Positions 2,814-36,696 of a stretch of DNA of 64,000 nt are shown one piece after another; positions within the stretch are counted from its first letter, which is position 1; the number at the start of each line of letters is the position of its first letter. Origin of the DNA: an uncultured Nitrospiraceae bacterium. GTDB taxonomy: Bacteria > Nitrospirota > Thermodesulfovibrionia > Thermodesulfovibrionales > UBA6898. Below the pieces are notes generated by a model, which worked only from the letters and a program-made list of their open reading frames with translations, was not told the DNA's origin and searched no databases. Where the stretch lies: assembly GCA_963811165.1 (NCBI GenBank), contig CAWEQH010000001.1, forward strand, positions 576,001 through 640,000, read 5' to 3'. The position numbers were made by a program, and so were the translations under genes.

Positions 2814-2855
2814 AATATTTTCCTCTCCGAACTAGTTCGATGTGTCACCTTCATC

Positions 2856-3941: not shown

Positions 3942-3965
3942 AAACTCCCTGTTGATGACATTCGA

Positions 3966-5072: not shown

Positions 5073-5319
5073 CTTATTAGCGGGGGGAAATCACTCTTCT
5101 TCGAACTTTAAAATAACTTTTTTATCAATCATGAAATAAACAAAAAAAAGTTCTCCTCATGAAAGTTAGACACAATTATTATAACATAGCGCTGTTTATT
5201 GAAAGTTTTGTTAGCAAAAATTGCTTCATCGAGAAACGGACCAATTCGAAAGAAGAAATTCTTGGAGGGAGCATGAGGGGCGTGAAGTGTTTGTTGCAGC
5301 GGTCGCTGATAACTGCGCA

Positions 5320-5349
5320 TTGACTAGCGGCGCCTCGTCATGTTATAAG
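5320..5349 (+). promoter_or_regulatory. Putative sigma-70 promoter of the radical SAM gene
   Basis: TTGACT-N18-TATAAG with TG extension, just upstream of ATG 5355. Confidence 0.4.
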
Positions 5350-5354
5350 AATAA

Positions 5355-6389: not shown

Positions 6390-6476
6390 TATCTCTTCTA
6401 TTCGCTCTGACCTTCTTTCGATCCAGAAGCGGGCCTCAACGATGGGAAAAGCGCTCATTGCATGGCGGACAGTTTG

Positions 6477-10034: not shown

Positions 10035-10110
10035 TTTGTTCACTCCTACAGTGCTGTCTTACATATATATTTTAGCAAAATGGTCCAACCTCATAACAAT
10101 CCCAACATAG

Positions 10111-10150
10111 AAGAAACCAAGGCCGCAGGGAGTATGTCCTGCGGCCTTGG
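10111..10150 (-). terminator. Rho-independent terminator after the multicopper oxidase gene
   Basis: Perfect 13-bp stem CCAAGGCCGCAGG-N8-CCTGCGGCCTTGG followed by TTTCTT on the minus strand. Confidence 0.8.
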
Positions 10151-10179
10151 CGTGAACTGTCCTGATACAGGCTAGTCCA

Positions 10180-15080: not shown

Positions 15081-15727
15081 TATGTTTATCCTCCTGCTTT
15101 TAAATGTTTTCCTTCATTGCTCTAAGCCCTGACACCATCATAATTCATAACTTCGTCTCAACATCCCCTTCCCTTTGTCGATTCTCCGACAATTTGATTG
15201 CTAAGAGTTCTATCTGGAAATATGCGTCTAGTGTAACTATTTACTCCCCCCATCAAGAGACCACTTGAGTGGTATCCGAATTTATTAAGTATATTTAATG
15301 ATGCCAACCAACGTTTAATATACTTATCTATTTAGAAATTTCAATATAAAAATATATAAAATATAAAAACTTTGCATTTATTCTCCCGCCATCCGCGAGA
15401 AGTCTGAATAATTTTAACCAATTAGGGGATTTTCAACAATAAGTCTTAGTCCGAAATTAATGGAGGATTCATTAACTTTGATGTAAGTCATTTCCCTACA
15501 AAAGTCGGGTTTAAATTCGTCACCCATGATCCTCAATAATCAGTAACAAGCTGTTATAGCTGCTTTTTTAGCTAAGCAGGGAAAAGCTATGCAGGGCGTA
15601 GTTGAAATTAACCTGGAAAAAGGAGATCAAGCGGAAAGTCATAATAGAAAAAATTAATAGATGAAAAATTAATCAAAGGACCACTTATCCCCCCAAGGCA
15701 CGTATGGATGTCATGTTGCAGAAACGC

Positions 15728-17505
15728 TCAGTAAATAACCCGATCGCTCCTTCTGATAAGTTCAGGTTTCGGTCCTTTCTTGAGCTGAACGATATAGCAT
15801 CCCTTGGAGGCATAGCGTTGACCCGGACCGAAGCTCAGGCGCTCATACGGAGCAATCTCCTGGTCCTCCATCATTCCGATGACATCCAAAAAGTAGTCAC
15901 GGTAATATTTTCCCCTTATATCCATGAGCGCCCGGTCCAGGACCTGGATAACGTCGTGTGTCCGCGCGGTAATCTGCTGAATATCGTCCTGAGCCGGCTT
16001 TCTCGTCAAGGTCTCGATGTGGCCTACAAACGTTGCCTCATCCTGGCGCAACCTGAAAGGGTAGGTTACGTAAGACTTGCGCAATTTGAAAGGGTAGGTT
16101 ATGTACGTGAAGTCACGGGCCTGATCCTTCAATTCCCAAACACTCTTCCCAAGATAGCTCGATGAAACAAAAACCATTCCCGGCCTGTCGTTACCGACAG
16201 CCGCCATATATTCAAGAGCGGTCAGGGCCTGGGGACCGTCCCAAAGGACGAGCACGGCAGGTTTTTCCTCAGCCAATGCCTTCCGCAAGGAGGCTGCAGT
16301 CAGCGCTTCCCCTGCCTTGAGGGTGACCGACACGGGGGGGCGATGTCCCGCTTCCTGCAATGTGTTTTGAAACCCGGCCGCCAGCGCCCGGCCTTCACTT
16401 GAATCGCGAACGATCTGGAGTATCACCCCGCCTTTTGCCGGTTCGTCCTCTACCGTATTGAGATATCTGGCCGCTCCTTCGCCTTCCTGATAATATCCCC
16501 TCGACAGATACCAGGTATACCAGTCATTTTCGGAAATGACCGGTAAATCGGTAAAAGGGAAGAGTTCCGGGATCTTATTTGCCTCGCAGAAATCGTGTAC
16601 CGGCTTCCAGTCACCGCTTGTAATTCCCCCTATCAGCGCAAATACAGGATTGTTACGATGGTATTCTTCCAGCTGGATGCGCCAGGTCTCCCGGGGACCT
16701 TTGAGCACCCAGAGTGCCAGTGACAGATCCCGGTATGCCTGTTCCGGACCGGCGTATTGTCCCTGGGACACCGATGATTCCTGCACAGAGCGGTTCATGC
16801 CTTCCTCAACCTTTTTGAAATATGCATTGCTGTTCCAACTCACTATGTAGTTCTCTAAGGGACGCAGCATCGCCTTGCGAACTTCGGGGCTCACATCCTC
16901 GGAGACGACCGTCGCCAAGTGCAGCGTCGAAGCCGAGACCCCGGGAGAAAATTGAGATGAAAGCGATTTGAGGTAGAAGATGAGCACTGCCATGTCCTTA
17001 TCATCAAGCAGATAACGGGGCATGACCTCGCTCAGGACCCGGCCTGTGGGGTCTATGCCGCCCCTGATTACGTCAGCCAATGTTTCATCCGTATACGCCG
17101 GCCGATATAAAAGCGGCGTGGGAGCTTTTTGAAAATAGCCTGTATAAAATTCTATCTTGTACGGATGGAAGAGCTTCTTCCCGGTTGTAGGGGGCGTGAT
17201 AACACTGCCCTCGATAGAGCCGAGCCCGCTGCGCAGATGGCAACTCACGCAGCTGAAGGCTGTTCCTGCAACAGGGATTTCCCCATTTACCACGGCCTCC
17301 ATCGGTTCACCCGAGGGAAGGATCCGTCACGATACATCCGTTCCCCAAGGCGTACTGCCTTTTCATTGGCCATCCCGGGAACAGGGAGGGGCTTTACGTC
17401 ATCTGCCCATACAGGCCCGGACCAATAAAGCGCGAGCAGGGTAATAAAAAATCGCAGACCGATCAATGCCCCGCGTGCTGTCTTTGCGATATATGTTTTC
17501 ATCAT
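15728..17505 (-). CDS. Monoheme cytochrome c fused to a periplasmic-binding-protein-like domain (frameshift ~17300)
   Basis: Signal peptide and LGERMYRDG in 17287..17505; CVSCH, MPRY and a long alpha/beta C-terminal region in 15728..17302. Confidence 0.8.
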
Positions 17506-18083
17506 TTGGCCATCCTTTCATATTCGGCCAAAAGGTCGGAAGTCCCGATGAGACCGTAGATTCTGAGCCATCGTTTGTCAGCCGAAGAATACAGCAGGGC
17601 CAGCGGCAAGTGGGACATCTTATTCATGGTGTAGGCCTCCAGGACCTTTGTCACTCTTTCGATATCTCTCTTGGAACCCGTCAGGAATTCCCACCCTGGT
17701 TTTGCACCATACCGTTTAAGGTACTCGGTCAGCCTTTTCGGGGTATCATTTTCAGGATCAATCGAGATGGAAATGAGCAACACATTCTTCGGATCCTGGC
17801 CGACCCTCTTTTGGAAATTTGCAAAGCCGGCTGAAAGCACCGGACAGATCGTGGTGCAGGTGGTAAAGATAAAATCCACCAACACTACTTTCTTCGAGTT
17901 CAGCAGCTCAATGAGCTTCACCTTTTTCCCCTGTTGATTCAGCAGCGTCACGTCCGGAACGACATAGTCTTTGAACGTCCTCGTGTACTTTTCCTGTGTC
18001 CCGGCGCTGACTATCTCTGCTGGAAGTAATAGCGTAAGTGCAGCCAACAAAACCGGGAAATACCATATCTTGAGTTTTGGCAT
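17502..18083 (-). CDS. SCO1/SenC family copper chaperone
   Basis: FIFTTCTTICP (CxxxC), SISIDPENDTP, W.FLTG, conserved His (MSH). Confidence 0.92.
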   Translation of the reverse strand: MPKLKIWYFPVLLAALTLLLPAEIVSAGTQEKYTRTFKDYVVPDVTLLNQQGKKVKLIELLNSKKVVLVDFIFTTCTTICPVLSAGFANFQKRVGQDPKNVLLISISIDPENDTPKRLTEYLKRYGAKPGWEFLTGSKRDIERVTKVLEAYTMNKMSHLPLALLYSSADKRWLRIYGLIGTSDLLAEYERMAK

Positions 18084-20366: not shown

Positions 20367-21137
20367 TCAACCGCCGTATCTCTTTATCGTTCCCGCAACA
20401 TCGGCGCCGGACTCATGAATCTGGCCGTGGTCCAGCCAGACGACTTTGTTGCAGAGGTCTTCTATGTCGGTCAAATTGTGAGAAACGAGAAGCATCGTTG
20501 TCCCCTTTTCTTTGAACGCACGAATTCTTTCGTTGCACTTTCTTTTGAAATGTGCATCGCCCACGGCGAGGATTTCATCGATGATGAGTATCGCCGGATC
20601 GACTTCGGTCGCGATCGAAAACCCGAGTCTGGCTATCATCCCGGAAGAATATGTTTTAAGGGGGCTGTAAATAAAACCGCTGAGCTCGGAAAAATCCACT
20701 ATCGCCTCGAACTTGTTGTCGATCTCCTTTTTTGAAAGTCCGAGGATCGAGGCATTGAGGTATATGTTTTCTGAGCCGGTCAGCTCCATGTCAAAACCCG
20801 CGCCGAGCTCTATAAGAGGTGCGATTTTGCCGCTTACAAAAACGCTTCCCGCTGTGGGCTTCATCACCCCGGCGACTACCTTTAAGAGCGTGCTTTTCCC
20901 TGCACCGTTAGCACCGATAATGCCGAGGGTCTCCCCTTTGCCGACCTCGAAGCCTACATGCCTCAAGGCCCAGAAATCCTCATAATTGGTCTTCCTGCCT
21001 TTTAGTTTCTGTATGAGAAATTCCTGGAGCGTCTTCGGTTTTTCCCTGGAAAGACGGTAGCGGACCGCAACGTCCGCAATCTTTATTGAGAGATCACTCA
21101 TCCCCGTGCCCCCAAATATTTCTCCGCCCGCGATCAC
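20367..21137 (-). CDS. wzt: Glycan ABC exporter ATP-binding subunit, no C-terminal carbohydrate-binding domain
   Basis: GANGAGKST, LGAGFDMELTG, YSSGM, ILIIDEILAVGD; alternative start at 21101. Confidence 0.92.
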   Translation of the reverse strand: MIAGGEIFGGTGMSDLSIKIADVAVRYRLSREKPKTLQEFLIQKLKGRKTNYEDFWALRHVGFEVGKGETLGIIGANGAGKSTLLKVVAGVMKPTAGSVFVSGKIAPLIELGAGFDMELTGSENIYLNASILGLSKKEIDNKFEAIVDFSELSGFIYSPLKTYSSGMIARLGFSIATEVDPAILIIDEILAVGDAHFKRKCNERIRAFKEKGTTMLLVSHNLTDIEDLCNKVVWLDHGQIHESGADVAGTIKRYGG

Positions 21138-21949
21138 AGATGATAAACCACCCTATCTTTATATCTGTCGTAAAAAATCCAGCCTGTGGACAATGCTCCC
21201 AGGGCGAACAATGACGCGAACAACAGTTTTTCATAAAAAAAAGGGACGTCCATGTATAAGACACCCCTGAAGACGCTTATAAAATAGTACATGGGGTTCA
21301 ACTCAAAGATTATCCTGAATCGTTCAGGGACTATCGACTCGGGGAAAAACACAGGGGTCATATACATCATGGCGAGCAGAACGACTTCATAAATGTATTT
21401 CGTGTCATGAAAAAAAACGGTCAGCGTCGAGAGGATGAGTGAAACCCCGTAACAAAATATCCCTACAAGGACGATTACCAATGGAAGCATGATAATACGG
21501 CCGCCGACAGAGGTGCCCGTCAGATAAAAGATTAAAAAAAGAGGGACGAGGGAGAAGACGAAATTGACAACTGCCGACATCACGACAGACAGTGGGAAGA
21601 TGGCCTTCGGAAGATAGATCTTCTTGATGAGATTGCTGTTAGTCAGCAGGCTTACGAGCGCCGATGACGTGCTCTGCGAGAAGAAGTTCCATAGAATGAT
21701 CCCGGAAAGGAGATAGGATGTGTAGTTTTTGGTCGCCACCCGAAAGAGTTCGGAAAAGACCATATTGAGTATCAGCATCATAAACAGAGGGTTAAGCATG
21801 ACCCAGAGAAATCCGAGAACAGACCTCTTATAGCGCACTTTAATGTCCCGCATGACGAGGTTCCTCAGAAGTTCCTTGTATCTGAGGATGTCAAATATTT
21901 CGCTTTTATATGTCACCATGCCTTGCCTCGGTTTGATATTATACAGCAT
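21134..21949 (-). CDS. wzm: Glycan ABC exporter permease
   Basis: RDIKVRYKRSVLGFLW..LNPL, TPVFFP, LNP; six TM segments; 4-bp overlap with wzt. Confidence 0.92.
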   Translation of the reverse strand: MLYNIKPRQGMVTYKSEIFDILRYKELLRNLVMRDIKVRYKRSVLGFLWVMLNPLFMMLILNMVFSELFRVATKNYTSYLLSGIILWNFFSQSTSSALVSLLTNSNLIKKIYLPKAIFPLSVVMSAVVNFVFSLVPLFLIFYLTGTSVGGRIIMLPLVIVLVGIFCYGVSLILSTLTVFFHDTKYIYEVVLLAMMYMTPVFFPESIVPERFRIIFELNPMYYFISVFRGVLYMDVPFFYEKLLFASLFALGALSTGWIFYDRYKDRVVYHL

Positions 21950-22068
21950 CCGCCCCGTCTTGTTCGCCTTGTCCGTGAATCTGTGAAACCCTCCCCGGGC
22001 TGTGCTAAAATCTTACATGGCCCGAGAGTTCAAAATGGTTTTATTTTTCCTGAAAAGGCCCTGAACCA

Positions 22069-23172
22069 TTGAAGATAGGTATTAATGCAACATTCCTGAG
22101 CGAAAAACCTACCGGATTAGGGGTTTTTACACAAGAGATATCCCGCCATATCTCTGCGCTTAACAGGGACTTCGTCGTATTTTCACCGGTCGCCCTGGAA
22201 GGAGTTTCGGAAGTTTTTATCCATAAAGTCCCGCCTTCGGTCAGGGGTTCTCTGAGGTTTCGCGATAACCTGCTGCGGTTTGTGTATCTAAACGGTCTCT
22301 TCCCCATGCTTTGCCGGAAGAGCAAAGTTGATGTCCTGTTTTGCCCGATGATAGAGTTTCCCTTTGTACCACTTGTCCCGCTTGTTGTGCAAGTCCATGA
22401 CCTGCACCCGATACAATTTGCCGCGCAGTTCAAGCGCGCTGCAGTTCACTTCAGATTATCACTGAAAAGGTTGGAGAAAGTCGCCGGAAGGGTGACCGTC
22501 TCGTCCGAGTTTGTAAAAAAAGTTCTCCTTTCGGCAACAAACTTGGGAGAAGACATGATCGACGTAGTCCCGCTTGCCTATAACCGGGAGAGGTTTTATC
22601 CAAGAGGCCAGGAGGGAAGAGCCGGGTTCCTGGCAAAATATTCCCTCAATGGCCCTTACATCCTTGCGGTGGGAAATCTCTTTCCTTATAAAAATATTGG
22701 CAGCCTTGTTGAGGCATTTCTCAGGATTAAAGGTAAGGTGGCTCATTCATTGGTCGTTGTCGGCAGAAAGGAATTTGCGGCATCGCAATTGGCCGATGAC
22801 GAACGGGTACTGTATACCGATTATGTCCCGGACGAAGACCTCCAGAAATTTCACTCCTATGCTGATCTTCTCATACACCCCTCCCTAAGCGAAGGCTTCG
22901 GACTTACTCCTCTTGAGGCGATGGCCTGCGGTACGCCGGTCATATGCTCTGACCGCGCATCATTACCGGAAGTAGTCGGAGACGCGGGGCTGCTTTTTGA
23001 TCCGGACGACGAGACCGCCTTGGGGGAATTGATACTGAGGGTGCTCGGCAATGAAGGACTGAGAAGAGAACTCTCGGCAAAAGGGCTGAAAAGGGCTCAA
23101 CTATTTTCCTGGGAGAAGACCGCCTCGGGCATCCTTGATTCGTGCAGGAAGGCGCTAAAAGAGAACCGGTGA
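22069..23172 (+). CDS. GT4 glycosyltransferase (mannosyltransferase-like)
   Basis: [36 protein letters not shown]. Confidence 0.9.
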
Positions 23173-24280
23173 AGATACTCCATCTGCTGTACGAAAGCAA
23201 GGGCGATTATTTCGGGATCGGCGGTGTCGGAACGCGCGCATACGAGATTTACGGCCGCCTCAAAGGCAGGCACGAAATTACGCTTTTGTGCAAAAAATAT
23301 CCTGGCGCACGCGACAAAGAGATAGAAGGATTGGCACATATCTTTGCGGGTACCGAAAGCAGGAGTCTCACCAGGACGCTGTTGTCCTACGCATACAGGG
23401 CGGCCCGCTTTGTCTCGGAGAAGGGGAAAGATATGACCTCATAATTGAGGAATTCTCCCCGGCCGTGCCGACCTTTCTCCATGCCGTTACGAAAAGGCCG
23501 GTTGTGCTGCAGGTCCAGGGATATACGGGGTCCCTTTATTTCAGGAAGTACAACCCCCTCTATTCTTCGGTCCTTTTTCTTTTGGAGCACCTGCGGCCGT
23601 TGCTCTATTGCAACTTTATATTTATAAATGATGAGACCGCGGGCAGGCTCTTTCTCGATAACAAAAAGCATAAGACGGTCATCCCAAACGGCGTGGCCCC
23701 CGAACTCTTCGGCCTCCCGTTTCGGCGAGGGGATTACATACTTTACCTGGGCCGTATACATGTACGGCAAGGGGCTCGACCTGCTTTTGGCTGCGTATAC
23801 TGAATTTTGCAGTTCTTTCCGTAACATCAAACTGGTCGTGGCCGGGGACGGCAGGGACATGGACAGGTTAAGGTCAGCGGTGATGGCACTGCCGAGGGCG
23901 TAAGGGGGAACATCGAACTTCCCGGTTGGGTCTCGGGAGTAAAGAAAAGCGAAATTATCGGTGATGCCTCTTTTGTCGTCTTTCCTTCCAGGCATGAGGT
24001 CCAGCCCATATCGGTCCTTGAGGCTATGGCCTGCGGGAAGTCTGTTTTAGTGAGCGATATCCCCGCATGCTCTTTTGTCACGCAAAACGGGGCAGGGGTC
24101 TCCTTCAAGTCAGGGGACCCGGCCTCGCTGGCCCTCTCTATGAAAGATCTCGCCGAAAGCTCCGCACGTGAAGAAATGGGGATCAAGGGAAGGGAATGGG
24201 TCAAAAATTTCACATGGGACAGGATCGCAGCTCAATATGAGAAGTTCCTTGTCGAGACAGTCGAATCTTACTCGGAGTAA
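23169..24280 (+). CDS. GT4 glycosyltransferase (frameshifted)
   Basis: GTG start overlapping the previous stop; fragments KILHLLY..GIGG, IPNGV, LYLGRI, KGLDLLL, PSRHEVQPISVLEAMACGK, FTWDRIA. Confidence 0.82.
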
Positions 24281-25472
24281 ATGATCGCCTTGATCTTCTC
24301 CTTGTCTTTTATCTTGGCAGCCAGTTTTGCCGATTTTCTTGTCTGCGGAATTTCCGATCAGCACCCGGTAGAGCATCCCTTTGTCTTTCCCGGAGCCCTT
24401 GACCACAAAGGCATCGTATCCTTTCCCCTTAAATTGTTTCGTCAGCGCGGCGGCATTGTCTCACTCTTAAACACACCCAGTTGAACGGAATAGTCTTTTT
24501 CCCTGAGGTTTTCGCTTTACCCGAAGGAGTGGGCGCTGTGGGCAAGGCGCGGCGGTCCTTTTTTCGCAGGCAATATGGGGGCCGGTGAGGGCGATGCAGG
24601 GGCTGTTTTCCCGGCAGACGGGCAAGCCGCAGGGGCCGTCTTATTTTCAGCGCCGGTCTGTTGTTTTTGCTGTTCATTTTCCGGAGCAGGCGACGGAGTC
24701 GAAGAATGAGCGGGCGCCGCATTCGGTCTTCGGCTTCATGCGGTAGTCGATGGGTTTATGGGGACGGCCTTTTTAGTCCCCAAATCCCGGTATCAGCCCG
24801 CTGTAAAAGAGGGCGCCTGCACGATAACGACAATTACCATGGCCGCTCCGGCGATGACCGCAGGGAGGCTCGCTTCTTTTTTCTGCGCCTCAGCGCTTCT
24901 TTGGAAATTAGGCATCCGCAGGCTCCGGAATTTTTTTTCCCCGTAAACCATTTCTTTATCAGGCTCTTCGTCAAGCTCCGGTATACCCGACAACTGAAAA
25001 ATCGGAGCCTCATGTCCGGGGCCTGTTTTACGGCAGGACCTCAATCGGGAAGGCAGTCTCTTCGCTTTCAGGGGCACGTTCCTTTTTCCTTGACGTGCAG
25101 TACGATGGGGGGCCTTGAATTGAGGACTTTCGCGGTTTTTTCAAGGAGCTCACCGGCGGTGAAAGGGACGGTAATCACGTCCGGCGACACGAAGGCAGAA
25201 GAGAGTCAATTCCATTTTGCTCGCGGGGATATCAATAAGACGAGGGGGACCTTTTGCAGTGACTCGAACCCGCGGATCGTCCTGCACATATCAAGCCCTG
25301 TTTCATCGGGGTTTATGAATATGAGGGAAGGGCTGACTTTCTGCGCCATTTCCGTGCCGACGTCGCCGCCGGGGACCGCAAAAAACCAGATTCCCTTCCG
25401 ATCGAGGGTAGAAGCGATGAGCTGCTCCGTTTCGCTGTCGGAGTCAATTACAAGGATCGTTTTGCTTGCCAT
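24268..25472 (-). CDS. Pseudo-receiver / linker / TM / SPOR-domain protein (frameshifted)
   Basis: N-terminus KTILVIDSD...PSLIFIN...VPLVLL...ITVPF (receiver fold); TM AVIAGAAMVIVVIV/AGALFYSG at ~24790-24870; C-terminus YSVQLGVFKS..NAAALTKQFKGKGYDAFVV..LYRVLIG..AKLAAKIKDKEKIKAIIYSE*. Confidence 0.78.
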
Positions 25473-25511
25473 AGTAAATTCCCTTTCAATGGGTTATCGT
25501 ATCCCGAGACC

Positions 25512-26529
25512 TCAAAGAGGTTCCCAGTACTTCGAAGGCATATGTTGCGCCAGTTCAGCGCACCGTTCATCCTGCAAACAGAGGGTCTTCCACGCAAGAT
25601 ACCCTGCAGGGGCCGTATTCTCTCAGTGCGTCCTGCAAATATTCACGGAGGCCCCGGATCAGGCTGCCGCCGCCTGCAAAGACGATATTGTTTTTATCCT
25701 GACCTGAATTCAGGATCGAACCTCGCGATCATCTCGGTGGTGGTCTCGGTGAGCGCCGGAAGAATGCTTTCGGAGGCCGCTTGATCTCGTGTTTGATATC
25801 GTGCATGACGGGTTTGCCGTCGACCGGTATCCCTCGCGGACCTCTTCGGCCGTGTCCCTTACAAAGCTGTAATTTTTTTTGAACCGACGCACCATGTTCT
25901 TGTTGAACTTCGAGTTGGGATATTTCTCGATCAGATAGCTGAACAGCTGGTCTTCTATGTAATCGCCCGCATTCAGTATGGTCTTCTGGGCTTCCTCTGT
26001 AGGGATCGCCCCGTGCATGATGCAGAAATCGGTCGTACCCGCGCCGATATCGATGACGAGCGAATGTTCAGGAGGTTCATCCCGTAGGCGACCGCAAAGG
26101 GTTCGGTCACACCATCAATGCGTGGACGAATTCCGTCACCGCCTTTCTGATGGCGAGTTGTTCACCTTCAGGGTATCGGCCGAACGCCCACGACCGCGTG
26201 TATCTTTTGTTCCGGTTTGGGGCCTGCGAGTTCGATCAGATGCTTCATGATCTCTTTCACGGCCTCTTCGTTTTTGCCGATCCCTTCCTTTATCACACCA
26301 TGCTCAAGAGCCGGCAGACGTCGAGGGAGAGCCTGTTTTGGAGCGCCTCGGCGCCGAAGAGCACCGGCTTGCCGACGACCTGCATCGAGATAAAGTCCTT
26401 GGGCCAGCCCACGAAACTCTCGATCCATTCCCTCTTGTCGTTGCCGGCCGAGATCGCGGACCTCGATGTCCCGAGGTCGATCCCTACGAACAGGATGTTA
26501 TCTTTTTTCTGCGGATCCGTTTGCCTCAT
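25512..26529 (-). CDS. MamK-like actin homolog (frameshifted)
   Basis: Reassembled: LFVGIDLGTSRSAI...SFVGWPKD...LEHGVI...AVVGV...TEPFAVAYG...VIDIGAGTTDFCIMHGAIP...AGDYIE...YSFV...DGKPV..DI...FDPEF..NNIVFAGGGSLIRGL...VEDPLFAG..GAL..AQHMPSKYWEPL*; colinear with MamK as I recall it. Confidence 0.85.
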
Positions 26530-27556
26530 AGCTCATTTCTCCTTTATTTAGGTAATCCAGTATCCCGGCCTCAAGATAATGGGCGATATTCTCCCTGTGC
26601 CCCGGGGTGTTCAGCATCTGTTCCTCCTCTTTGTTGCTCAGGCATGAGACCTCCGCCAGCACGGCCGGTATGTCCACTCCAAGCAGCACGACGAAAGGCG
26701 CCCTCTTGACCCCGAAGTCGTAGGCGTTTCCGTTGTCTTTCTTGAAGTTCAGAAAAAGCGTTTTTTGTATGGAATATGCAAGGCCCCTGGACTCCTGCGT
26801 CTTCATCCTCTCCCCCAGCTTTTCGATGATCTCCTTGAAATCGCTCAGGCCATACTGGGACCCGGCGTTTTCCTGTTCCGCAAGCCTTTGCGTCTTGGTA
26901 TCGGCAGAGGGACCGAAAAAGTAGGTCTCGATGATATTGATCGGTTTGTGGGGAATATAATTGAGATGAATGGACAGGAAGAGGTCCGCCTTTTTTGATA
27001 CTGCCATATCGACCCTTTTATTGAGGGGCACCGTAACGTCCTGGTCTCGGGTCATCAACACGTTAAACCGGCCGTATTTGTCTAAACGTTCCTTCAGCCT
27101 CCTTGCGATGTCTAAAGTGATGTCCTTCTCAAGAGTGCCCATTACTCCCTTTGTGCCGGAGTCTGCGCCGCCGTGCCCCGCGTCTATCATGATCGTCCTT
27201 ACCCCCAGGCCGAAGGTGCGGCTGACCGACATATCGGGATTGGTGATAAATGCCCGGAAATCGGCCGGATTTGATTTGGGGCCGGGAGTGAGAATTTTTT
27301 GACTTATCTCGCTTGCGGTCAGCTGTTTTTCCGAGAAGAACGAGTTTGAGACGTAGGAGCCGTGGACCAGGATAGCGACCGTTGAGATAAGCAGGGTCAG
27401 GAAAAACTTATTGAGGAGAAAAGGTTTTTGCCGTGATGCAACGCCGTCGCCCTTGCCGATGATCCGCAAATTTTCTTCATAGACGCCCCGCAGCATCTCC
27501 TGCCGGACCTTAAGATCGTTTTTCTTCCGCGAAAAAATAGAGATCATGACGTTCAC
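26498..27556 (-). CDS. N-acetylmuramoyl-L-alanine amidase (Amidase_3, AmiC-like) with N-terminal TM
   Basis: IMIDAGHGG, EKDITL, LFLSIHLN, AEQEN, APFVVL, LAEVSCLSN. Confidence 0.92.
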   Translation of the reverse strand: MNVMISIFSRKKNDLKVRQEMLRGVYEENLRIIGKGDGVASRQKPFLLNKFFLTLLISTVAILVHGSYVSNSFFSEKQLTASEISQKILTPGPKSNPADFRAFITNPDMSVSRTFGLGVRTIMIDAGHGGADSGTKGVMGTLEKDITLDIARRLKERLDKYGRFNVLMTRDQDVTVPLNKRVDMAVSKKADLFLSIHLNYIPHKPINIIETYFFGPSADTKTQRLAEQENAGSQYGLSDFKEIIEKLGERMKTQESRGLAYSIQKTLFLNFKKDNGNAYDFGVKRAPFVVLLGVDIPAVLAEVSCLSNKEEEQMLNTPGHRENIAHYLEAGILDYLNKGEMSYEANGSAEKR

Positions 27557-27849
27557 AACACTTTACCAATTTGCGGGAAAAAATTCAATGGTGAAGCTCT
27601 CTTATAGCAGGCATGTCACTTGTCCTGTGCCCTCTGCAGCAAAAAATGTATCTTGTTCCAGGCCATGTTGTTAGCGCCTGTGCTTGCCCGCTATGTATAT
27701 GTAATAGTAATGGCGCCGAGGGGAACCCTCTCCCAGGTTTTTCTCGCTCTTGCCTATCCCGAAGCCGAAATTCAAGAAATTCAGTCTCTGTCGTCCATTA
27801 ATTCATATTCTTCAACTATAGAGTATTCATCCTGAATCCGGAAAACAAT

Positions 27850-28899
27850 TTAAATTATGACCTGCATCTTCTTCAGGCCAAAGGCAGTTAGGTTCGTTAA
27901 GAGGAAGGATAGCATATAAATGATAATCACTAGAAAAGAGAATAACAAATAATCTTCTAAGAGATTTAATTGAAGGTATCTAAAAAGAGGTAAAGTCTGA
28001 GTTAATAAAATATGATGAATTAGAAATGCTCCATAAGAATATACACTGAAAAAATTAACAATCTTCTTAAGAAATAAAATATCAAAAAAAGAAGAGACAC
28101 ATGATAAACATATGAAAATGCAAATACCTTCTATAGCCGTCCTATAAAGGATAGGCATATTCGTTTCAACAGCCAAGAAAAAGAATATTCCTGCTATTCC
28201 TATTATGAAAACTTTTGACAATCCATGAGAGGGGTTATAGAAATAAACAAAACTCATGCCAAAGGCAAATTCGACTAACCGAGACAGCGGAAATCTGAGA
28301 ATTTCCATATTCAGACAATAAAATCTTTCCGTCAAGATCATTATGAATACACAAAACAGAAAGGTGATCAATTGATTTGTCAAAAATAGACGCCGCAAAA
28401 AAGGAAAAATCATATACATGATGATGATAAAGCCTAAAAACCATTCTCCCAGCAAATAAAAATTATTTACTCCATACCGCAAAAAACCATCTAGCCCCGC
28501 GATTGTAAGCAAGAAAGTTGCCAAATGTGCTTTTACAGGAACCGCTTGATATTTCAAGAATAATATTGAAAAAGTTATCACATAAGTAACCCAGAAAAGA
28601 GGATAAATGGAAAAAAACCTTTTTTTAAAAAAAGCCTTTGCCTCAAAGGTGTCTTTTGTGCTTACCATTAGTGAAGCTCCCGATAGAATAATGAAGAGTG
28701 ACACTCCTATAAGTCCCCAAAAAGAGTGATCCAAGCTAAACAGCGATTGAGGCCAGAAGACGATATTGTTCGTAATTCCCATTTCCAGGGCATGATAATT
28801 GTAATGAAAAATTATTATCAGTAATATTGAAATCGCTCTTAAAAAGTCAAGGTAGAAAAGTCTTTTCCCCTTCATCGTATGTAGTTTGACATTATCCAC
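27850..28899 (-). CDS. Acyltransferase family 3 (polysaccharide O-acyltransferase)
   Basis: LDFLRAISILLIIIFH, GVSLFIILSG, KRFFSIYP, YSYGAFLIH; ~10 TM; AT-rich. Confidence 0.88.
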   Translation of the reverse strand: MDNVKLHTMKGKRLFYLDFLRAISILLIIIFHYNYHALEMGITNNIVFWPQSLFSLDHSFWGLIGVSLFIILSGASLMVSTKDTFEAKAFFKKRFFSIYPLFWVTYVITFSILFLKYQAVPVKAHLATFLLTIAGLDGFLRYGVNNFYLLGEWFLGFIIIMYMIFPFLRRLFLTNQLITFLFCVFIMILTERFYCLNMEILRFPLSRLVEFAFGMSFVYFYNPSHGLSKVFIIGIAGIFFFLAVETNMPILYRTAIEGICIFICLSCVSSFFDILFLKKIVNFFSVYSYGAFLIHHILLTQTLPLFRYLQLNLLEDYLLFSFLVIIIYMLSFLLTNLTAFGLKKMQVII

Positions 28900-29911
28900 G
28901 AAGAAACTTTTTGATCTTCATTAAGAAGAAGTCCTTTTCCCAAACAGAGGTCATAATACTGTAAAGGTATTTATTATCGACTTTCACGGTTTTCATAATT
29001 TGTTTTCTCTTGCTCATCATGCTTGGAAAAAAAATGACAACGTCTCTTTTTGCCTTAAGATAAACCCTCAGTTTCCTATGCTTTACTGCAAAATAGATAA
29101 ACTCAGATATGATGCCAAGGATAAATTCCGGGAAACACCTCAAGAAAAGAACAAATGAGATATTCTTGATTCTCACAAATTCGCTGTTCCTGAGGGTATA
29201 ATAAACAGCCATATCGCTCATATGACCTATCGATGAGCGAACCTTATGATAGACTACCGCGGTAGGTACGTAGAGGACCTGCCAACCTGCAAGCTGAGCC
29301 CTGAAGTTAAGATCGGTATCTTCGTGGATCAGGAAAAAATCTTTGTCAAGAAAACCGATCTCATCGAGCATTTTCCGCCTGTAAAGTGCAGCACCTGCAC
29401 AAGCACCGAAGACATATTCCTGGCTGTTATAGTTGAGGCTGGCTTCCCCTTCTCCTCGTTTAAAGCCCTTCAGCGATGTTGAGTATCCGTCACCCGCACT
29501 ATCTATGTTATCTGTTCCAAAAACAATCATTTTAGAAGCGCAGATGCCCGTATCGGGACGCGCTTCCATCACTCTAACAAGATTATCGATCCATTCCCTG
29601 CCGGGTTCGGTGTCATTATTAAGGAGGGCTATATATTCGGCTTCCGTATACGCTAACCCCGCCAGATTACCACCAGCAAAGCCTGAGTTACCGTTTAAGG
29701 GGATTAATTTTACAGGATTTAAAGTGCTCATTTCTAAAAACTTTCGGATTTCATTTATTGAATTATCTGACGAGCCATTTTCAACAATGATAACCTCAAA
29801 GTCCTTAAAGCTCTGCTCCTCAATAGCTCTCAGACAATCTATCGTCAGGTCGCTCCCATTGTAATTGACAATAATTATGCTTACTTTGGGCATCTGCCTT
29901 GGTTGATGCAT
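28892..29911 (-). CDS. GT2 glycosyltransferase
   Basis: VSIIIVNYNG, GFAGGN, LLNNDTE, EDTDL. Confidence 0.9.
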   Translation of the reverse strand: MHQPRQMPKVSIIIVNYNGSDLTIDCLRAIEEQSFKDFEVIIVENGSSDNSINEIRKFLEMSTLNPVKLIPLNGNSGFAGGNLAGLAYTEAEYIALLNNDTEPGREWIDNLVRVMEARPDTGICASKMIVFGTDNIDSAGDGYSTSLKGFKRGEGEASLNYNSQEYVFGACAGAALYRRKMLDEIGFLDKDFFLIHEDTDLNFRAQLAGWQVLYVPTAVVYHKVRSSIGHMSDMAVYYTLRNSEFVRIKNISFVLFLRCFPEFILGIISEFIYFAVKHRKLRVYLKAKRDVVIFFPSMMSKRKQIMKTVKVDNKYLYSIMTSVWEKDFFLMKIKKFLRG

Positions 29912-29961
29912 GTCTGAATAATGAAGATAGGGAGCCCGATCTCATTCATACGGGTTTGCAC

Positions 29962-32503
29962 TTAATACGAGGAAATTAAATATGAAACGTCATCGCTTTC
30001 GCTCTTAATGAATACCTTAATGATATTAAAGCCAGTATCTTTAGAAATTACTTCCTTTAAAACTGATCCCCCAACTTTAAACTCCCATCCCGAATTCAGA
30101 CAATCAGCCCTATCAAAATGCTTTTCCACATCCGGACGCGGCATCCCAAGCGTTGCCTTTCCCACAAGTTCAGCATTGGCATAAATGAAGATCTCCTTTA
30201 CGGGGTCATTGATTCCTTTGCCTATAGCCCACCCGAAAATGGAGAGACCGCCATCCTGTGTCATCCAAACAGAATCAATGTTTCCCATAGGGTAATGGGT
30301 AGGCATCAAATTGTTCATCTGCGGAATATTCTTTTTTGTAACCACATAAATATCCTGAAATCCGCGTAATTCTTTCTCCAGAAAATAAATATTGGCAATG
30401 CCTATTTTCTTGCCCAATCCCTCCACCCAATCTCGTTTTACAAAGGTAGATCCATATTCCTTTGAAGACAATGACCTGCTTTCGCTCCAATTAAAAAAGG
30501 TGAACCCTGACGGATCGATCTGAAGTCCTTCAGGGCACAACGATTCTCCATGCGTTGAAAAGATAAGGATTCCGTCATCGTCCAAAACGTTATAGAGAGT
30601 CGATAGCCACTCTTCAAAACGGTTTGCGGGAAGATGAGAAAATAGAGATCCTACATAAATTATCTCAAAGTTTCCGGGAAATACCAGGCGTGAAGGTTCT
30701 GTTTCAGAGTAAAACCCATTTACCATAAAATATTTCTTTTGAAAATCTACCGCGTCCTTGTAGATATCGCTTACCCATACTTTGGTGGACTCGATCTCTT
30801 GAATCAAGAACCTCGTAACCCTTCCGTAGCCGCATGCAAAGTCCAAAAAGGTTCTTACTTCTCGAAACGACTTTCCGCTAAACCGTATAATATTTTCAAT
30901 GCTCTTAAAACATTCTCTGCCTATTATGAAATAGAGATATTTTGCCGTATCCTTCTGCTCGGTGCTATTTCTCGAAGTGATATACATCTCATCTTCCGGA
31001 CTTATTACATCAACAAAAGTATTGGGGTTCTTCGCTGCCGTTTCGATGTAGGCATTCGCTAATTTTTCCTCTCTGTCAGTGAACAAATGTTGATTGATGA
31101 CATGCCTGTCATTAGATCCTTTTGTCTTCTCCATACACTGTCTAATAAATCCTTTTATCTTTTCCATGCATTGTTTGTTAAAAGTCTCTTCCCAGCTCTG
31201 GCTCCAATGAACGTTGGCTCCGCTTACACGGCTGTCATAATTTTCAATATTCTTTATTGCCCTCACGAGTCCATTTTCTATTCCTTCTGTTGTGGGTTCA
31301 GCCGGGATAATATTTGTCGAAGATTTCCCTAAGACGTTCTGCTGTTTTATTAGCAAAGGTATTTGTTATAACAAGCATCCCCGCTGCAGCCATTTCTAAA
31401 GGTACAATGCTTGGGTGTGGTGAAAGCATCAAACTAAGGCCAATATCAAACCCCGGCAGCACCTCTTTATATTCGTTCAGACTCAGCTTCGGCAACAGTT
31501 TCATAGATACATTGTCATGAAGGATTATCTTCTTGTTCTCTCCCTCTACACTGCCGATTCCATAGAACTCCCAGTTATCAACATCAAAATAACCACTTCC
31601 GATTACATTGGACAATGCGATCATTCCAAGCTCAAACATGTTTCGTGATGCATGTTCCTCAGGGCGTGCATAAAACAATAATTTCTTTTTTGCCCTACTC
31701 GCCATCTTGGTCTTGTCTAATTGAAATTTCAGAATCGCGTTCTCAATAGCAACAGACGATTCCTCACCGATTTGATGCCCGTCTCTAAATACTCCTAATC
31801 GATTCTGACTGAAATATTCTCTCAGTATTTCCGTAGAAAACACCGCGTAATGAGGAAGATTATAGCTTTCCATCGCCAAAGCCGCAAATGATCCCATCGG
31901 GTAAAATATAGGTTCGAATTCCTGGCTGAGATATAGAAAGTTATGAGAATTGAGGTATTTTATAGCGTAATTTGCGATATGAGCCGTCCACCAGCTGGTC
32001 GCCATGAAAACATCTTTTCCGCTCACATTTATTGGCTTTGACCTGAGGACAGCATATTCAACTTCAACATAATCAAAGAACCCTTCAAGTCCTTCGTATT
32101 TCTTAATCTCCTCTTTCCACACATCGGGTTCAAACTTACACTCATCGATAATTACCATTCTGACTTTAAATCCTTCTGCTGTCAGCTTTTTCGCAAGATT
32201 AAAGACCGATAGATATCCACCAAAGAAATACTTAAAATTGATGATGGAAATCAGCATATTCACCCGTTCTGGTTCGCTGTCCACAATTTCAAGATTTAAG
32301 GGTGCAATCTTCTGTCTGATGAAATTGATGACAGGATAATCCCGAAACGCTGAAGAATCTGCAGAATGATTTGTGCTGTCCACCACTTTTTCCCTTGCCT
32401 TCTTAAGAAAAGCCCTGAATCCGTAATTTCTTATATATAAAAAAGATTTTTGTGCAGTTAGTTTATTGAATAGCCTCAAAAATTTCAATACAGTTTCCGC
32501 CAT
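29962..32503 (-). CDS. WsaF-like glycosyltransferase fused to a SAM methyltransferase and a C-terminal Ig-like module (frameshift ~31320)
   Basis: AGGAG before ATG 32503; FFGGY, ATSWWTA, FYARPE..RN.FELG, SLMLSPHPSIVPLEMAAAG; the GT C-terminus (NIIPAEPT...WSQSW) continues in the next frame, then LDFACGYGRV, SLFSHL, GWA..RPDV. Confidence 0.75.
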
Positions 32504-32516
32504 TGATCTGCTTCTC

Positions 32517-35164
32517 CTACGATTTCTTAATGCATCTATAATATGCATTCATTAATCTATTTGCAAAAATACTCTTAAGCAGCAGGGAATCCATCCCAAG
32601 CGTGGTACAATCCTTATTAAGGAGTTTATCCTTTACGATCTGAAGAAAGATGCTTAACACTGACTTTTCAAAGCTGACAAATCTCTCTATGATTCTTCTT
32701 TTTTCCCCTGAAACATTGCTGCAACGCAGACGGAGCACATGAGCAATCATAACCCTTCGGGGATAATGATTATAATATTCGGCTTGATTATGCTTCAGCA
32801 AAGCTAAAATATCATTGAACCACCTTCTTATCGTTAACCTTTCTTTAAGGTTCTTCAGAAGTTCGATAAGTTCTTCCTGTGAGACCTTATTCTGTTTGAC
32901 ATAATGGCCCAACACATTACCTGAATGCTGATAGTAATCATAAAGGGGTTTATCGTGATATTTTATTTTTCCCATAGCAAGTGCAACGCAGGCAATAAAA
33001 TGATCATGATAAAAATCCCCTATTTTCGCAGGAAAGGGCAATAAGACATTCAGAAGCTCCTTCCGAAAAAGAGAGGCTGCTCCGGTAACCGTATTGGTAA
33101 GTATGAGAAGATCAAGTTCACTGAAATTATTCTTCCTTGTCGTCCAATACGTATTGTATATAACGTTCCCTTCTGTATCCACAATATTCATATCGGAATA
33201 CACTAAAGTTGTATCCTTATCAAAAAGAGCCATCAGGGTAGATAACTTGTCCTCATGCCAGTAATCATCCTGATCAGCGAGGGCCACAAAAGATGTCCCT
33301 TCCGGGACATAGGACAGACACCTCTCAAAGTTATGATAGAATCCCAGATTAGATGGGTTTCTGTATAATATAAAGCGCCTGTCTCCTGCAACAATATCTT
33401 TAACCTTTTCAAATATTTCAGGTTCAGAACAATCATCATTAATTATGCATACCCATTTTTTGTATGTCTGGCATATGATTGAATCTATCTGTTTCTTGAA
33501 GTATCTCAATGAAGGATTATAAGTAGTCATGCATATGGCAATTATAGGCTGCCCATATGACTTATCATCTATAGTGCGCATGGACGATGCAGCCGGGCTC
33601 ATTTCCGGCTCGAGAGTGAGGCTTCCCATTGAAGATGTACATTTGTTTCCATTATAAAGCTCTGTTCTAATATCAAGGGTTATCTGGCGTGGAGAATCGA
33701 TTTTAGTAAAGGGAATGATTACCCAAAACTTAGTCATGATACTATTTCCTTTACCATCTTCTTGAAAATGTGTCGGGGGGCCACTATCTTTAAGAAAAGA
33801 AAAGTGAGAAACCGGATACTCACCACCGGCAGCAAGGACAACAATTTTTTTTACCCATTGAGACGGATGGTAACACCAGCCATGCAAAAAAAAGGCATTC
33901 CCTGCACCAACAATAAACGGCATTGAAAGGTTAGTTTCTATATGATAGGTCAGCTTCTCCTCAATAAATGTCTTTTTTTTTTCATCAGATTTGCCGGGAT
34001 AAATACTATGAGATCAAAAACCCTCTTAACGAAATGTCTCCTAATAGAATTCGCAGGTAGAAGTTTGTCCCGGATCCTGTAAAATAGCGACAACGTCTTC
34101 CATCCGCGTGAGCTATAAATGCTCTGCAGAAGAAAATCTTTATCCTTTACTAAAGACTCAATGTTGGTTATTCGCTGGTCTCTTTGATCAATATGGTATG
34201 CGAGGTTGGTAATATACTGGTCTTTTCCCTTTATCACATCCCGCAGATTTTTCGCATAAACTTCAAGCTCTTTTATATGCCTACCTTTATCATTTTTATC
34301 TTTTTCAAGCTCCCTCAAATATACATTCTGTTCTCTGAGAGCTTCAAGATTCTTGACGTGAACATCCTGATGACGGGCATGACATTCTCTTAAAATATTA
34401 TCCATTCGCCCCTTGAAATGCATCCATGAGCTCCAACTGACATATTCTTTGTTTCTTTCGAAAACTATAGAAGCAAACTTCTGGATGTCATATCTGCTTT
34501 CAAGGTAATTCTCGATGGAAGCAGCGTAAATATTATATTGGCAAGTAACTTTCTTCAGGTGCAGGAATTCATGGTTTCTTGAAATTAGAGTAAGCATTCG
34601 CCAATCTTCGTGTGTATGAAGATCCTCTTCGAACCGCCATTTGGTGAGCACATTCTTCTCAAACATAAGACACATGAACGGGATGTAGTTTTCGAACAAT
34701 AACCTTTCCCTGTCAAAGTCCTCGGAATACAGCCTTTCCTTTTTCTTGAGAACATATTCATCCGGAGCTGCTTGGATTTCATGAAAGGCGAGATACGAAT
34801 CGGCATAAGCAACTTTATAATAATTGCCCTTGCTGAGTTCGCTGACAAGTGTATCAACATGCTCCGGATAAAACTCGTCATCATCATCGAGAAACCCTAC
34901 GTATTCGCCTTTCGCGCTTTCGATCCCGATATTCCCGGCGTGCGCCCTGCCCATGTTTTTTTCGAGCCTCTTATAATTGAGCGATACGTCCCCGAGAATG
35001 CCTTTTATCTCTTCGATATCGAGGTCGCAGCCGCCGTCATTGACAAGGACGACCTCAATCGGCCGGTAGGTCTGCGCAGCAATGCTCTCTAGCGCCCTTT
35101 TGAGAAGTTTTGGCCTGTCTTTTGTCCTTACGATTATGGAAACTAAAGGTCTGTTTTCGTCCAT
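32517..35164 (-). CDS. Multi-domain GT2 / coiled coil / GT2 glycosyltransferase (frameshift at A10 tract 33973-33982)
   Basis: VSIIVRTKDR, FLDDDD, HEDW, coiled coil and SSRGW; after the tract KTFIEEKLTYHIETNLS runs in frame into ORF 32517..33923 (MTTYNP, ALADQDD, NTVTGA, HD). Confidence 0.75.
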
Positions 35165-35289
35165 TATTATCCTAAATTCCTCATAGCTACCTCTTCCGAT
35201 CTTTTCCCCGGTAACCATTATTATATTTGATAGCGAGCTAAAATTTCTATGAAGGTTCAGGCCAGCCGGAGAGAGACTAAAGAGAGAGT

Positions 35290-36696
35290 TCAGTATGCCC
35301 CTTCTCTTTTTATGACGATCCGAACGGTCTTCAGAAGGATCACGACATCCAGCCAGAGGTTCCAGTTCCTGACATACCATGAATCGAGTGATATGCGGTA
35401 CTCATAACTCGTATTGCTCCTGCCGCTCACCTGCCAGAGTCCGGTGATGCCCGGCAGCACACAAAAACACAACTCGGCCATATCCTTATAATGAAAGTCA
35501 ATTTCATCCTGAGTCACGGGCCTGGGTCCGACGAGGCTCATCTCGCCTTTGAGGACGTTAAATATCTGAGGCAGTTCATCGAGGGAGGTCGTCCGAAGGA
35601 ATCTTCCTATCCTCGTGACCCTGGGGTCATCGCTCAGTTTCCAATGTTTTTCCCACTTCTCTTTCGTTTCCTGATCTTTTTCGAGGAGTGCGGCGAGTTT
35701 CTCCTCGGCGTCTTCATACATCGTCCTGAACTTGTAGCATCTGAAGAGGGTCCCCTTCTTCCCGATCCGCTCCTGAGAGAACATCGCCTTCCCCCTCGAA
35801 TCGAGCCGTATCAGTACGGCTATAGCCGCCATTGGGACCGAAAGGAAAGGCAGCATCAGGACGCCCATGACAATATCAAAACACCTCTTGACAAAGATGT
35901 TTAGGGGGTTTGAGAGGTTGTTTTTCATCTCGAAGGCGAAGGCCTCTTCATGAAAAAAATGCTGAAGGTCCGTTCCCGTGACTGCAATCCCGAATATGTC
36001 GGGAACGAAGAGGATACGTTCGACCTTGTGCTGCAGGCTGTTGATGAGGCCCTGGAGCCGCTCCTTGCCCGCGCCGGGCATGGCGATGAAAAGGTCGTCG
36101 ATGCCGCACCGGTTGATATACGTCGCCGCCCGATCGGTCCCCTTATGGATTTTAATGCCTTCTATCTCCCGGCCGAACTTAGCCGGGTCGTCGTCGACAA
36201 ACCCCTTGATCTCGTATCCGTAATTCGGTTCTTTCTTTAGGGCCCTCAGGATCAGCTTCCCTGTCTCTCCCGCACCGAGGATAAGGACCCTGCGCTTAAG
36301 CAGGCCGAACCGTCTTAACGCCTTTTTGGTGATGGTCCTGATCAGAGGGAGCAAAAGGACCGAGATGATTCCCATCACGACGACGATGGTTCGTGACATC
36401 ACATCGCCGAGTTTCCCGACCGACACCACGGTAAAGACACCTACCGTCGAAAAAAAAGATACCTTCCATAGCGCCCTTATCTCGTCCCAGAAAGAGAACC
36501 TCTTTGTGTAGAGGCCCTCATAATAAAATAGAAAGATCCAGACGGCAAAGACCCACCATATGTCTGCAAACCCCCTGAAGGAAAGGCTTGGGGGGAAGCC
36601 CGCGTAAAAGAGGGGTAGTGCCTTGAGCCTGATGAGGACCGCAAGACCGAATATGACCAAAATGGCTGCGATATCGACAAAAAAAACCGTGAGCAC
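35290..36696 (-). CDS. wbaP: Undecaprenyl-phosphate hexose phosphotransferase (WbaP family)
   Basis: N-terminal TMs, GAGETG, KRCFDI, KFRTM, DDPRVT, SLDELPQ, SLVGPRP, PGITGLWQVSGR. Confidence 0.9.
   Translation of the reverse strand: MLTVFFVDIAAILVIFGLAVLIRLKALPLFYAGFPPSLSFRGFADIWWVFAVWIFLFYYEGLYTKRFSFWDEIRALWKVSFFSTVGVFTVVSVGKLGDVMSRTIVVVMGIISVLLLPLIRTITKKALRRFGLLKRRVLILGAGETGKLILRALKKEPNYGYEIKGFVDDDPAKFGREIEGIKIHKGTDRAATYINRCGIDDLFIAMPGAGKERLQGLINSLQHKVERILFVPDIFGIAVTGTDLQHFFHEEAFAFEMKNNLSNPLNIFVKRCFDIVMGVLMLPFLSVPMAAIAVLIRLDSRGKAMFSQERIGKKGTLFRCYKFRTMYEDAEEKLAALLEKDQETKEKWEKHWKLSDDPRVTRIGRFLRTTSLDELPQIFNVLKGEMSLVGPRPVTQDEIDFHYKDMAELCFCVLPGITGLWQVSGRSNTSYEYRISLDSWYVRNWNLWLDVVILLKTVRIVIKREGAY

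Follow-up and report, generated by a model that had tools for sequence, protein, structure and literature searches.

The actin gene in the window (the whole stretch of 64,000 nt analysed here) represents a non-magnetosome lineage of the MamK family that is co-inherited with the amidase gene immediately upstream. The pair and the features associated with it are:

26498..27556, minus strand: N-acetylmuramoyl-L-alanine amidase (Amidase_3), intact, upstream of the actin gene
26539..26544, minus strand: Shine-Dalgarno-like AAGGAG inside the end of the amidase coding sequence, 9 nt ahead of the ATG of the actin gene
25512..26529, minus strand: amidase-linked MamK-family actin (intact allele on contig C3: 342 aa)
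24268..25472, minus strand: receiver-like domain without the phospho-acceptor Asp, membrane helix, Pro/Ala-rich linker and SPOR domain (C3 allele: 406 aa)

The first possible start of the amidase gene is a GTG at 27556 and the likely one an ATG at 27547. Its 3′ end overlaps by 32 nt the start of the actin gene, which runs from an ATG at 26529 to a TGA at 25512–25514. The AAGGAG in the end of the amidase gene would fit translational coupling of amidase and actin. An Rfam scan of the window returned no matches, and a promoter scan found one site where 2.1 were expected by chance. The actin had been called an orphan in a preliminary description of this DNA. That holds in the sense that no magnetosome genes lie nearby, but the gene is the middle one of a conserved operon. 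The description mentions neither this coupling to a wall amidase and a SPOR protein, which is the main feature of the gene, nor the probable assembly origin of its frameshifts.

In the window, the actin gene is spread across all three frames. Relative to the C3 allele (P0001), which is an open frame of 342 aa, it has 11 single-base deletions and no insertions, and the lengths agree (1018 + 11 = 1029 nt, or 342 aa plus a stop), which bears out the protein of about 340 aa that had been reassembled earlier. The third gene is also frameshifted, with 21 bases missing and 5 extra relative to C3. The assembly (3.66 Mb in 10 contigs, 95.44% complete) carries the region twice more, on two small contigs, C2 and C3. 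C2 is 95–98% identical to positions 1–34858 of the window and near-perfect at both flanks, while C3 matches parts of the same segment with 81–97% identity. As the flanks of C2 match almost perfectly and C3 shares the module region, the three copies were read as probable strain variants of one locus, and three true paralogs in one genome were rejected. Over the amidase and actin genes, C2 is just ~80% identical to the window, a pattern that points to an allele acquired by recombination from another species; it is frameshifted there too.

The frameshifts in the window are very probably an assembly artefact in a strain-variable region. With 11 frameshifts in the actin gene and 26 indels in the third gene, the window copy alone, as distinct from the module, might be taken for a genuine pseudogene in this strain, and the public runs, which come from relatives only (the best ~93–95% identical to the window), do not represent the window strain itself. 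However, several lines of evidence make a pseudogene improbable. All 11 lesions in the actin gene are single-base deletions, and comparison with C3 revealed 45 synonymous and 18 non-synonymous codons (pN/pS ~0.12) and no new stops. C3, the relative L010 (96% identical) and contigs of the public runs X1 and X2 all give 11 gaps when aligned with the window actin. L010 has none relative to C3, X1 and X2 each span the gene in one piece, and in X1 all 11 missing bases are restored at the same places. Between the window and C2, there are 0–2 gaps per kb in identical stretches, climbing to 9–17 per kb at 24–28 kb, where the contigs diverge, and unrelated neighbouring genes in the window are also frame-broken.

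The window gene was confirmed as a real MamK-family actin, not MreB. The motifs previously described as MamK-like are all present in the frames (SFVGWPKD, EPFAVAYG, DIGAGTTDFCIMHGAIP, FDPE, NIVFAGGGSLIRGL and LAQHMPSKYW). When scored with NCBIfam models, P0001 passed the cut-off for MamK (NF040964; 409.2 bits, cut-off 400) and failed those for MreB (NF010539; 92.1 bits, cut-off 293) and BeeR (NF053558; 232.6 bits, cut-off 530). Other amidase-linked actins scored 372.7–440.4 bits with NF040964, seven above the cut-off and two below it. The best PDB sequence matches of P0001 were MamK (E = 2e-88; MreB, 7e-16), and the predicted structure (pLDDT 89) was also closest by fold to MamK, with a TM score of 0.90 to the filament subunit 5ljv. 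These scores and matches, together with the tree described below, agree with the earlier judgement that the protein is MamK-like rather than MreB-like. Its nucleotide motifs are invariant in all 32 amidase-linked actins aligned. A Glu that we take to be the equivalent of MamK's catalytic Glu is kept in 29 of the 32 and replaced in three, and 19 positions are specific to the lineage (e.g. W35, K122 and Q196). The 120 nearest database proteins listed are 80–96% identical, and those that are named come from Nitrospirota. Further clusters returned by an ESM Atlas search were solely MamK- or MreB-named. A canonical mreB (530 bits) is found elsewhere on contig C1, and FtsZ is also encoded elsewhere in the genome. 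At two loci (L048 and L166), the actin frame extends to 1138–1174 aa, with the stop lost by a frameshift or the genes truly fused.

Matches to P0001 with E ≤ 1e-40 were found in 79 of the 301 genomes of the class. They form two separate groups, one of 55 genomes with 63–100% identity and one of 24 with 43–47%, and no genome has both. The module amidase, scoring at least 390 bits, is present in exactly the same 55 genomes, plus a contig-end fragment in one more (G287). In 54 of the 55 carriers, actin and amidase genes are adjacent on one strand, and in the remaining one they are on different contigs; as the genomes are related, these counts show tight linkage and not independent events or a probability. 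Some amidase match was found in 286 of the 301 genomes, mostly a housekeeping paralog of ~250 bits.

The association extends beyond this phylum. A profile search found the actin in 30/401 genomes of the phylum of an Aminicenantes record and in 5/6 genomes of a small phylum, and in these two samples the amidase gene lies directly upstream in all 35 loci that include upstream DNA. MamK-family hits were found in 15/301 genomes of the phylum of a deltaproteobacterial record, three of them amidase-linked, and Sumerlaeota are also represented, according to a record title. Among loci found by pattern search, those with an actin of at least 60% identity have the amidase upstream in 70/70 cases with enough upstream DNA, as do three further loci with actins that are 49–51% identical. 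The amidase is not upstream in nine non-cluster loci (39–48% identity, mostly planctomycetes) or in 13 magnetosome loci. Records titled as Chloroflexota (L043) and Clostridia (L055) were not counted as additional phyla, because they nest among Nitrospirota/Desulfobacterota and Aminicenantes rows. The third gene is not universal, with the receiver in 44/72 and SPOR in 42/67 loci that have enough downstream DNA (~60%). No activator gene is conserved beside the pair in the 80 clustered loci or the phylum-sample loci. We conclude that coupling of the genes shows shared function, which is not proof of direct contact between actin and amidase.

The genes flanking the pair vary between genera. In the window, the module is inside a surface-polysaccharide region (1–6400 and 20370–36696) that includes glycosyltransferases, WbsX, WsaF, an ABC-2 exporter and a sugar transferase, and where the GC content drops to 0.38–0.42 at 27–35 kb. 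Among the other loci, only those of the closest relatives (L010–L013 and L058) have such surroundings. Genes for a subtilase, a large multicopper-oxidase-like protein, a periplasmic-binding protein with CxxCH and a SCO1/SenC protein are located at 7867–18083 on the minus strand, and the multicopper-oxidase-like gene is fragmented in the window, C2 and C3. At 6537–7437 on the minus strand, an exported protein is followed by a small ORF for a Peptidase_S74 (endosialidase chaperone) domain; the two are probably one frameshifted gene, and no phage genes were seen nearby.

A Pfam scan of 56 ORFs in the window found no mam, mad or man gene, as noted previously. When proteins of magnetosome clusters were used to query the genome, the sole non-actin best hit inside the window was a TPR protein (43295–44014, plus strand, after rlmN), which was the best match of a MamA-like query at 33% identity and looks generic. 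In the 95%-complete genome, the best family match to the MamM profile scored 124.7 bits (cut-off 350); true MamM of relatives score 364–425 bits and the second CDF ~195–235. MamI was not found in the genome by a search in which control sequences gave no signal either. The genome was queried with the ORFs of eight Nitrospirota magnetosome-cluster loci, and the results cover three of these; for these three, ORFs conserved in at least five other clusters gave either no hit or generic paralogs of no more than 33% identity, MamK excepted. The cluster MamK queries match the C3 actin allele with 42–44% identity. The window actin was not found to be encoded in or with a magnetosome cluster (mamA/B/E/I/M/P/Q).

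Within the class, the search for MamM covered 79 of the 301 genomes, those with an actin match. A MamM-family match with E ≤ 1e-45 was present in all 24 genomes with a magnetosome-type MamK (23 over the cut-off) and in none of the 55 amidase-linked carriers. The amidase-linked actin was absent from all 24 magnetosome-type genomes, including two in the window's family, where 26 of the 35 other genomes carry it; as 16 of the 24 belong to one family, there are too few independent events for this to be taken as exclusion. Of the two possibilities offered in the preliminary description, a homolog in a non-magnetotactic organism is supported by these results. The alternative of a dispersed mamK in a magnetotactic organism lacks such support, as MamM, MamI and cluster orthologues were not found, and no magnetosome cluster was found elsewhere in the genome.

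Five supported groups emerge when 47 rows are placed in an unrooted tree: the amidase-linked actins (100/98 support), Nitrospirota-type cluster MamK (100/100), planctomycete actins (100/100), coiled-coil-linked actins (100/99) and a proteobacterial-type set that includes tandem copies from Desulfobulbaceae (100/100). The trees were made after reducing 78 rows to 65, 47 and 41 by removing near-duplicate rows and rows on long branches (L081, L087, L088, L126, the second L096 copy and the Mad28-like rows were among those dropped). They do not include BeeR, saltatorellin or Magnetospirillum MamK, and the stand-ins (P0232, P0234 and P0240) are named by their sources as Magnetococcales or Nitrospinota, with gene context unverified. 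The amidase-linked actins are separate from the four planctomycete rows, saltatorellin itself being absent from the tree. An outgroup of one MreB plus two Mad28-like rows left a polytomy at the base, and an outgroup of six MreB placed the root weakly (76/13, 90/59) between the amidase-linked group and the rest. In the latter tree, MreB is a separate group (100/100), and the window actin falls outside it, so a grouping with canonical MreB, raised earlier as a possibility, was not recovered. AU tests did not reject constraints joining the amidase-linked group with the proteobacterial-type group (p = 0.34) or with Nitrospirota MamK (p = 0.14), or joining Nitrospirota MamK with the proteobacterial-type group (p = 0.13). 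As judged from these trees, the amidase-linked lineage is distinct and not nested in a magnetosome MamK branch, though it may be sister to either MamK group. Its relevance to the origin of MamK, proposed in the preliminary description, is plausible but unproven, given the weak root and the alternative placements that survive the AU tests.

We also considered whether the actin is a true magnetosome mamK, either as a scattered copy in a cell that makes magnetosomes or as what remains of a cluster since lost. The actin does pass the NCBIfam MamK cut-off, there are magnetotactic genomes in the same family (G151 and G167), a cluster could be missing from an assembly that is 95% complete, and the tree joining it with Nitrospirota MamK survives the AU test. 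Set against these are the absence of MamM from all 55 carriers, the failure to find other cluster orthologues in this genome, the separation from Nitrospirota cluster MamK in the unrooted tree, and an identity of just 35–50% to those proteins, which have two insertions that the actin is without. This explanation is very unlikely and already largely refuted.

Other MamK-family actins were found outside magnetosome clusters. Four genomes of the coiled-coil-linked and proteobacterial-type groups (G525, G583, G436 and G312) have no MamM over the cut-off, and their actins pass the MamK cut-off. Tandem pairs of MamK-family actin genes split by a small gene are present at L110, L113, L125 and L126 (G525 and G583) and in P0229 and P0237. 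They group with proteobacterial-type MamK, have relatives named Desulfobulbaceae or Desulfurivibrio, and come from genomes without MamM over the cut-off; on sequence evidence, they are another non-magnetosome lineage. A further lineage over the NCBIfam cut-off (L115–L119, L121, L123 and L124) is found behind charged coiled-coil-like proteins, with no MamM over the cut-off in the two genomes tested (G436 and G312). A record titled as Geobacteraceae (L087:686-1759) includes a long-branch MamK-like gene flanked by response-regulator genes, and this actin falls among Nitrospirota cluster MamK in a quick tree.

The amidase model comprises an N-terminal helix (residues 3–29), a basic stretch, a hydrophobic helix (44–67), a linker and the catalytic domain, with AlphaFold pLDDT of 40–83 over residues 1–70, so that the topology is modelled with modest confidence. 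A hydropathy scan found the hydrophobic helix in 37/38 amidases. As no Tat, AxA or lipobox pattern was present in any of 33 amidases, we infer an uncleaved single-helix membrane anchor with the N-terminal helix in the cytoplasm. Export by the Tat system was rejected, the Tat pattern being found in 0/33. The N-terminal helix has hydrophobic residues at positions 18, 19, 22, 23, 27, 29 and 30 and an invariant Asn26, and its pattern (with a looser variant) matches 30 of 34 further loci. The catalytic domain aligns with AmiC, AmiB and AmiA, regulatory insert included, and has the features of autoinhibited amidases of this type. The zinc ligands and catalytic Glu (His125, Glu140, His194 and Glu299) are invariant (33/33), as are Glu226-Asn227 of the blocking helix (33/33). 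In AmiA/B/C-type enzymes, the blocking helix of the regulatory insert holds a zinc-binding Glu (PMC10268282).

The third protein has a membrane helix in 42/42 cases and an Asp at the phospho-acceptor position in only 1/42, and its SPOR part weakly resembles FtsN and RlpA. The genome also has three further SPOR genes and, distinct from the module enzyme, a housekeeping amidase.

By analogy with a known cytoskeleton–hydrolase pair, the actin filament probably binds the cytoplasmic N-terminal helix of the amidase and sets where the wall is cut, with the SPOR protein, where present, reading the product. The actin would polymerise in an ATP-dependent manner, as MamK does. As the filament has no evident membrane-binding tail, the bitopic amidase would serve it as anchor and cargo alike, the contact being made via the amidase helix I-L-x-x-V-Y-x-x-N-L. 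Because the blocking helix is present, the amidase would need activation before it could cut. The third protein, in Nitrospirota and some Desulfobacterota, would use its SPOR domain to bind the peptide-stripped glycan made by the amidase. Through its pseudo-receiver, on the cytoplasmic side, this protein could also connect to the filament and so mark or reinforce the zone of cutting. The outcome would probably be remodelling of the wall at particular sites, affecting shape, curvature, outgrowth or cell separation, as a supplement to MreB, FtsZ and the housekeeping amidase. The best reading is that the module may be an accessory cytoskeleton-guided wall-remodelling system that works like bactofilin–LmdC, where the lmdC and bacA genes overlap by 17 bp and the BacA filament binds cytoplasmic residues 1–38 of LmdC (PMC10945521). 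The amphipathic N-terminal helix could instead bind the membrane or oligomerise the amidase.

The main rival to helix binding holds that the pair cooperates without contact, with the actin positioning other cargo or working alongside FtsZ/FtsA in division or cell separation. The amidase and SPOR protein would then be a co-expressed FtsN/AmiC-like accessory set. The module amidase is indeed closest to the division amidases AmiA/B/C, the third protein's SPOR part has its weak likeness to FtsN and RlpA, and SPOR domains bind amidase-made denuded glycan and target septal glycan (PMC6895207). However, cooperation without contact leaves unexplained a cytoplasmic helix, with its invariant Asn, that the amidase retains across phyla. 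The genome has its own FtsZ, housekeeping amidase and other SPOR genes, and an amidase match is found in 286/301 genomes whether or not the module is present. We regard this rival as unlikely, though not negligible. With no secretion, pilus or junction gene conserved beside the pair in the 80 clustered loci, it is decidedly improbable that the amidase opens wall holes for a trans-envelope structure (an appendage or cell-cell junction) and that the filament spaces or places these, even if the distribution is patchy and cassette-like (55/301 and 30/401 genomes) and Nostoc AmiC2, which drills wall pores, is among the structural matches of the amidase. A mobile-element system of a ParM-like segregation actin and a lysis amidase would suit the patchy distribution and apparent cross-phylum transfer but is scarcely credible, as no match was found in 72,556 plasmid records, the neighbours of the pair are glycosyltransferases and other chromosomal genes, and the amidase, unlike endolysins, has a membrane helix and a blocking helix.

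The window-type actin resembles MamK (PDB 5JYG, 5LJV and 5LJW; NF040964) in its fold, in ~41% identity over the full length, in having all nucleotide motifs and the C-terminal P..YW, and in scoring above the family cut-off. Unlike MamK, it belongs to a separate lineage whose carriers have no detected magnetosome genes, and it is paired with a wall amidase rather than with mam, mad or man genes; it also has 19 lineage-specific positions and lacks the insertions of Nitrospirota MamK. The proposed actin–amidase pair is like BacA–LmdC (PMC10945521) in having overlapping genes, hydrolase then cytoskeleton, and a bitopic hydrolase with a short conserved cytoplasmic N-terminus. The two systems are not homologous, one having an ATP-binding actin and an Amidase_3 enzyme and the other a bactofilin and an M23 endopeptidase; the N-terminal element is a predicted helix rather than a β-hairpin, and binding is demonstrated for BacA–LmdC and proposed for actin and amidase. 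Saltatorellin (10.1101/817700) and BeeR (PMC11929497; PDB 8R2N) are likewise MamK-related actins of non-magnetotactic bacteria, but BeeR has a disordered N-terminal extension of 30–50 aa where the window-type actin has ~8 disordered residues. Planctomycete MamK-like actins are on another branch and have no upstream amidase. The amidase shares the Amidase_3 domain, zinc ligands and blocking-helix Glu with the AmiA, AmiB and AmiC enzymes that act with FtsEX–EnvC (PMC10268282) and differs from them in its predicted uncleaved anchor with a cytoplasmic motif and in having no activator gene conserved alongside. A bitopic SPOR protein beside an actin recalls FtsA–FtsN, though here the actin is MamK-type, not FtsA, and the SPOR protein has a pseudo-receiver. 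MreB and Mad28 share only the actin superfamily, and identity to two Mad28-like proteins, so named by inference from their loci, is just 21–25%.

Non-magnetotactic relatives of MamK have been published, namely saltatorellin (10.1101/817700), BeeR (PMC11929497), Salactin (PMC10746226) and unnamed homologs (PMC7449369). The word amidase does not occur in the accessible text of the saltatorellin, FcmB, Mad28 and Salactin papers, nor is an amidase mentioned in the first part of the BeeR paper. Searches combining MamK with N-acetylmuramoyl-L-alanine amidase returned nothing, and those combining MamK, actin, amidase and SPOR returned unrelated papers only. The amidase–actin module is undescribed in the literature searched; the searches found no description of an amidase-linked MamK lineage, but as supplements and most subscription papers were outside their scope, a prior mention is possible. 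In the text consulted, Awal et al. 2023 (PMC10653835) count mamK among the signature genes of magnetotactic bacteria, and Uzun et al. 2020 (PMC7449369) report that MamK forms two clades and that 227 of 2798 MamK-like metagenome hits were kept after a check for other mam genes. The amidase-linked lineage is likely to account for some of the hits discarded there. According to the part of Uzun et al. 2022 (PMC9376291) consulted, no cluster genes were found in non-magnetotactic Nitrospirota, and this result stands because the window-type actin is not nested in Nitrospirota MamK.

These findings name a conserved candidate cytoskeleton–hydrolase module in uncultured anaerobes of several phyla. They also indicate that annotation as MamK family is not a marker of magnetotaxis, as 55 genomes of the class have the amidase-linked actin without MamM and 24 have the magnetosome type. 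Because the family includes several non-magnetosome lineages, a better-rooted tree could test how MamK arose. We tentatively raise, as a rather doubtful proposition, that the amidase-linked actins are the earliest MamK branch and keep an ancestral job, in which an ATP-driven filament grips an anchored amidase and steers wall cutting, perhaps switching the enzyme on, without FtsEX–EnvC. If so, the amidase-linked actin would add another functional class to the bacterial actins, and magnetosomes would have recruited their MamK later, perhaps on two occasions, from a cell-wall cytoskeleton.
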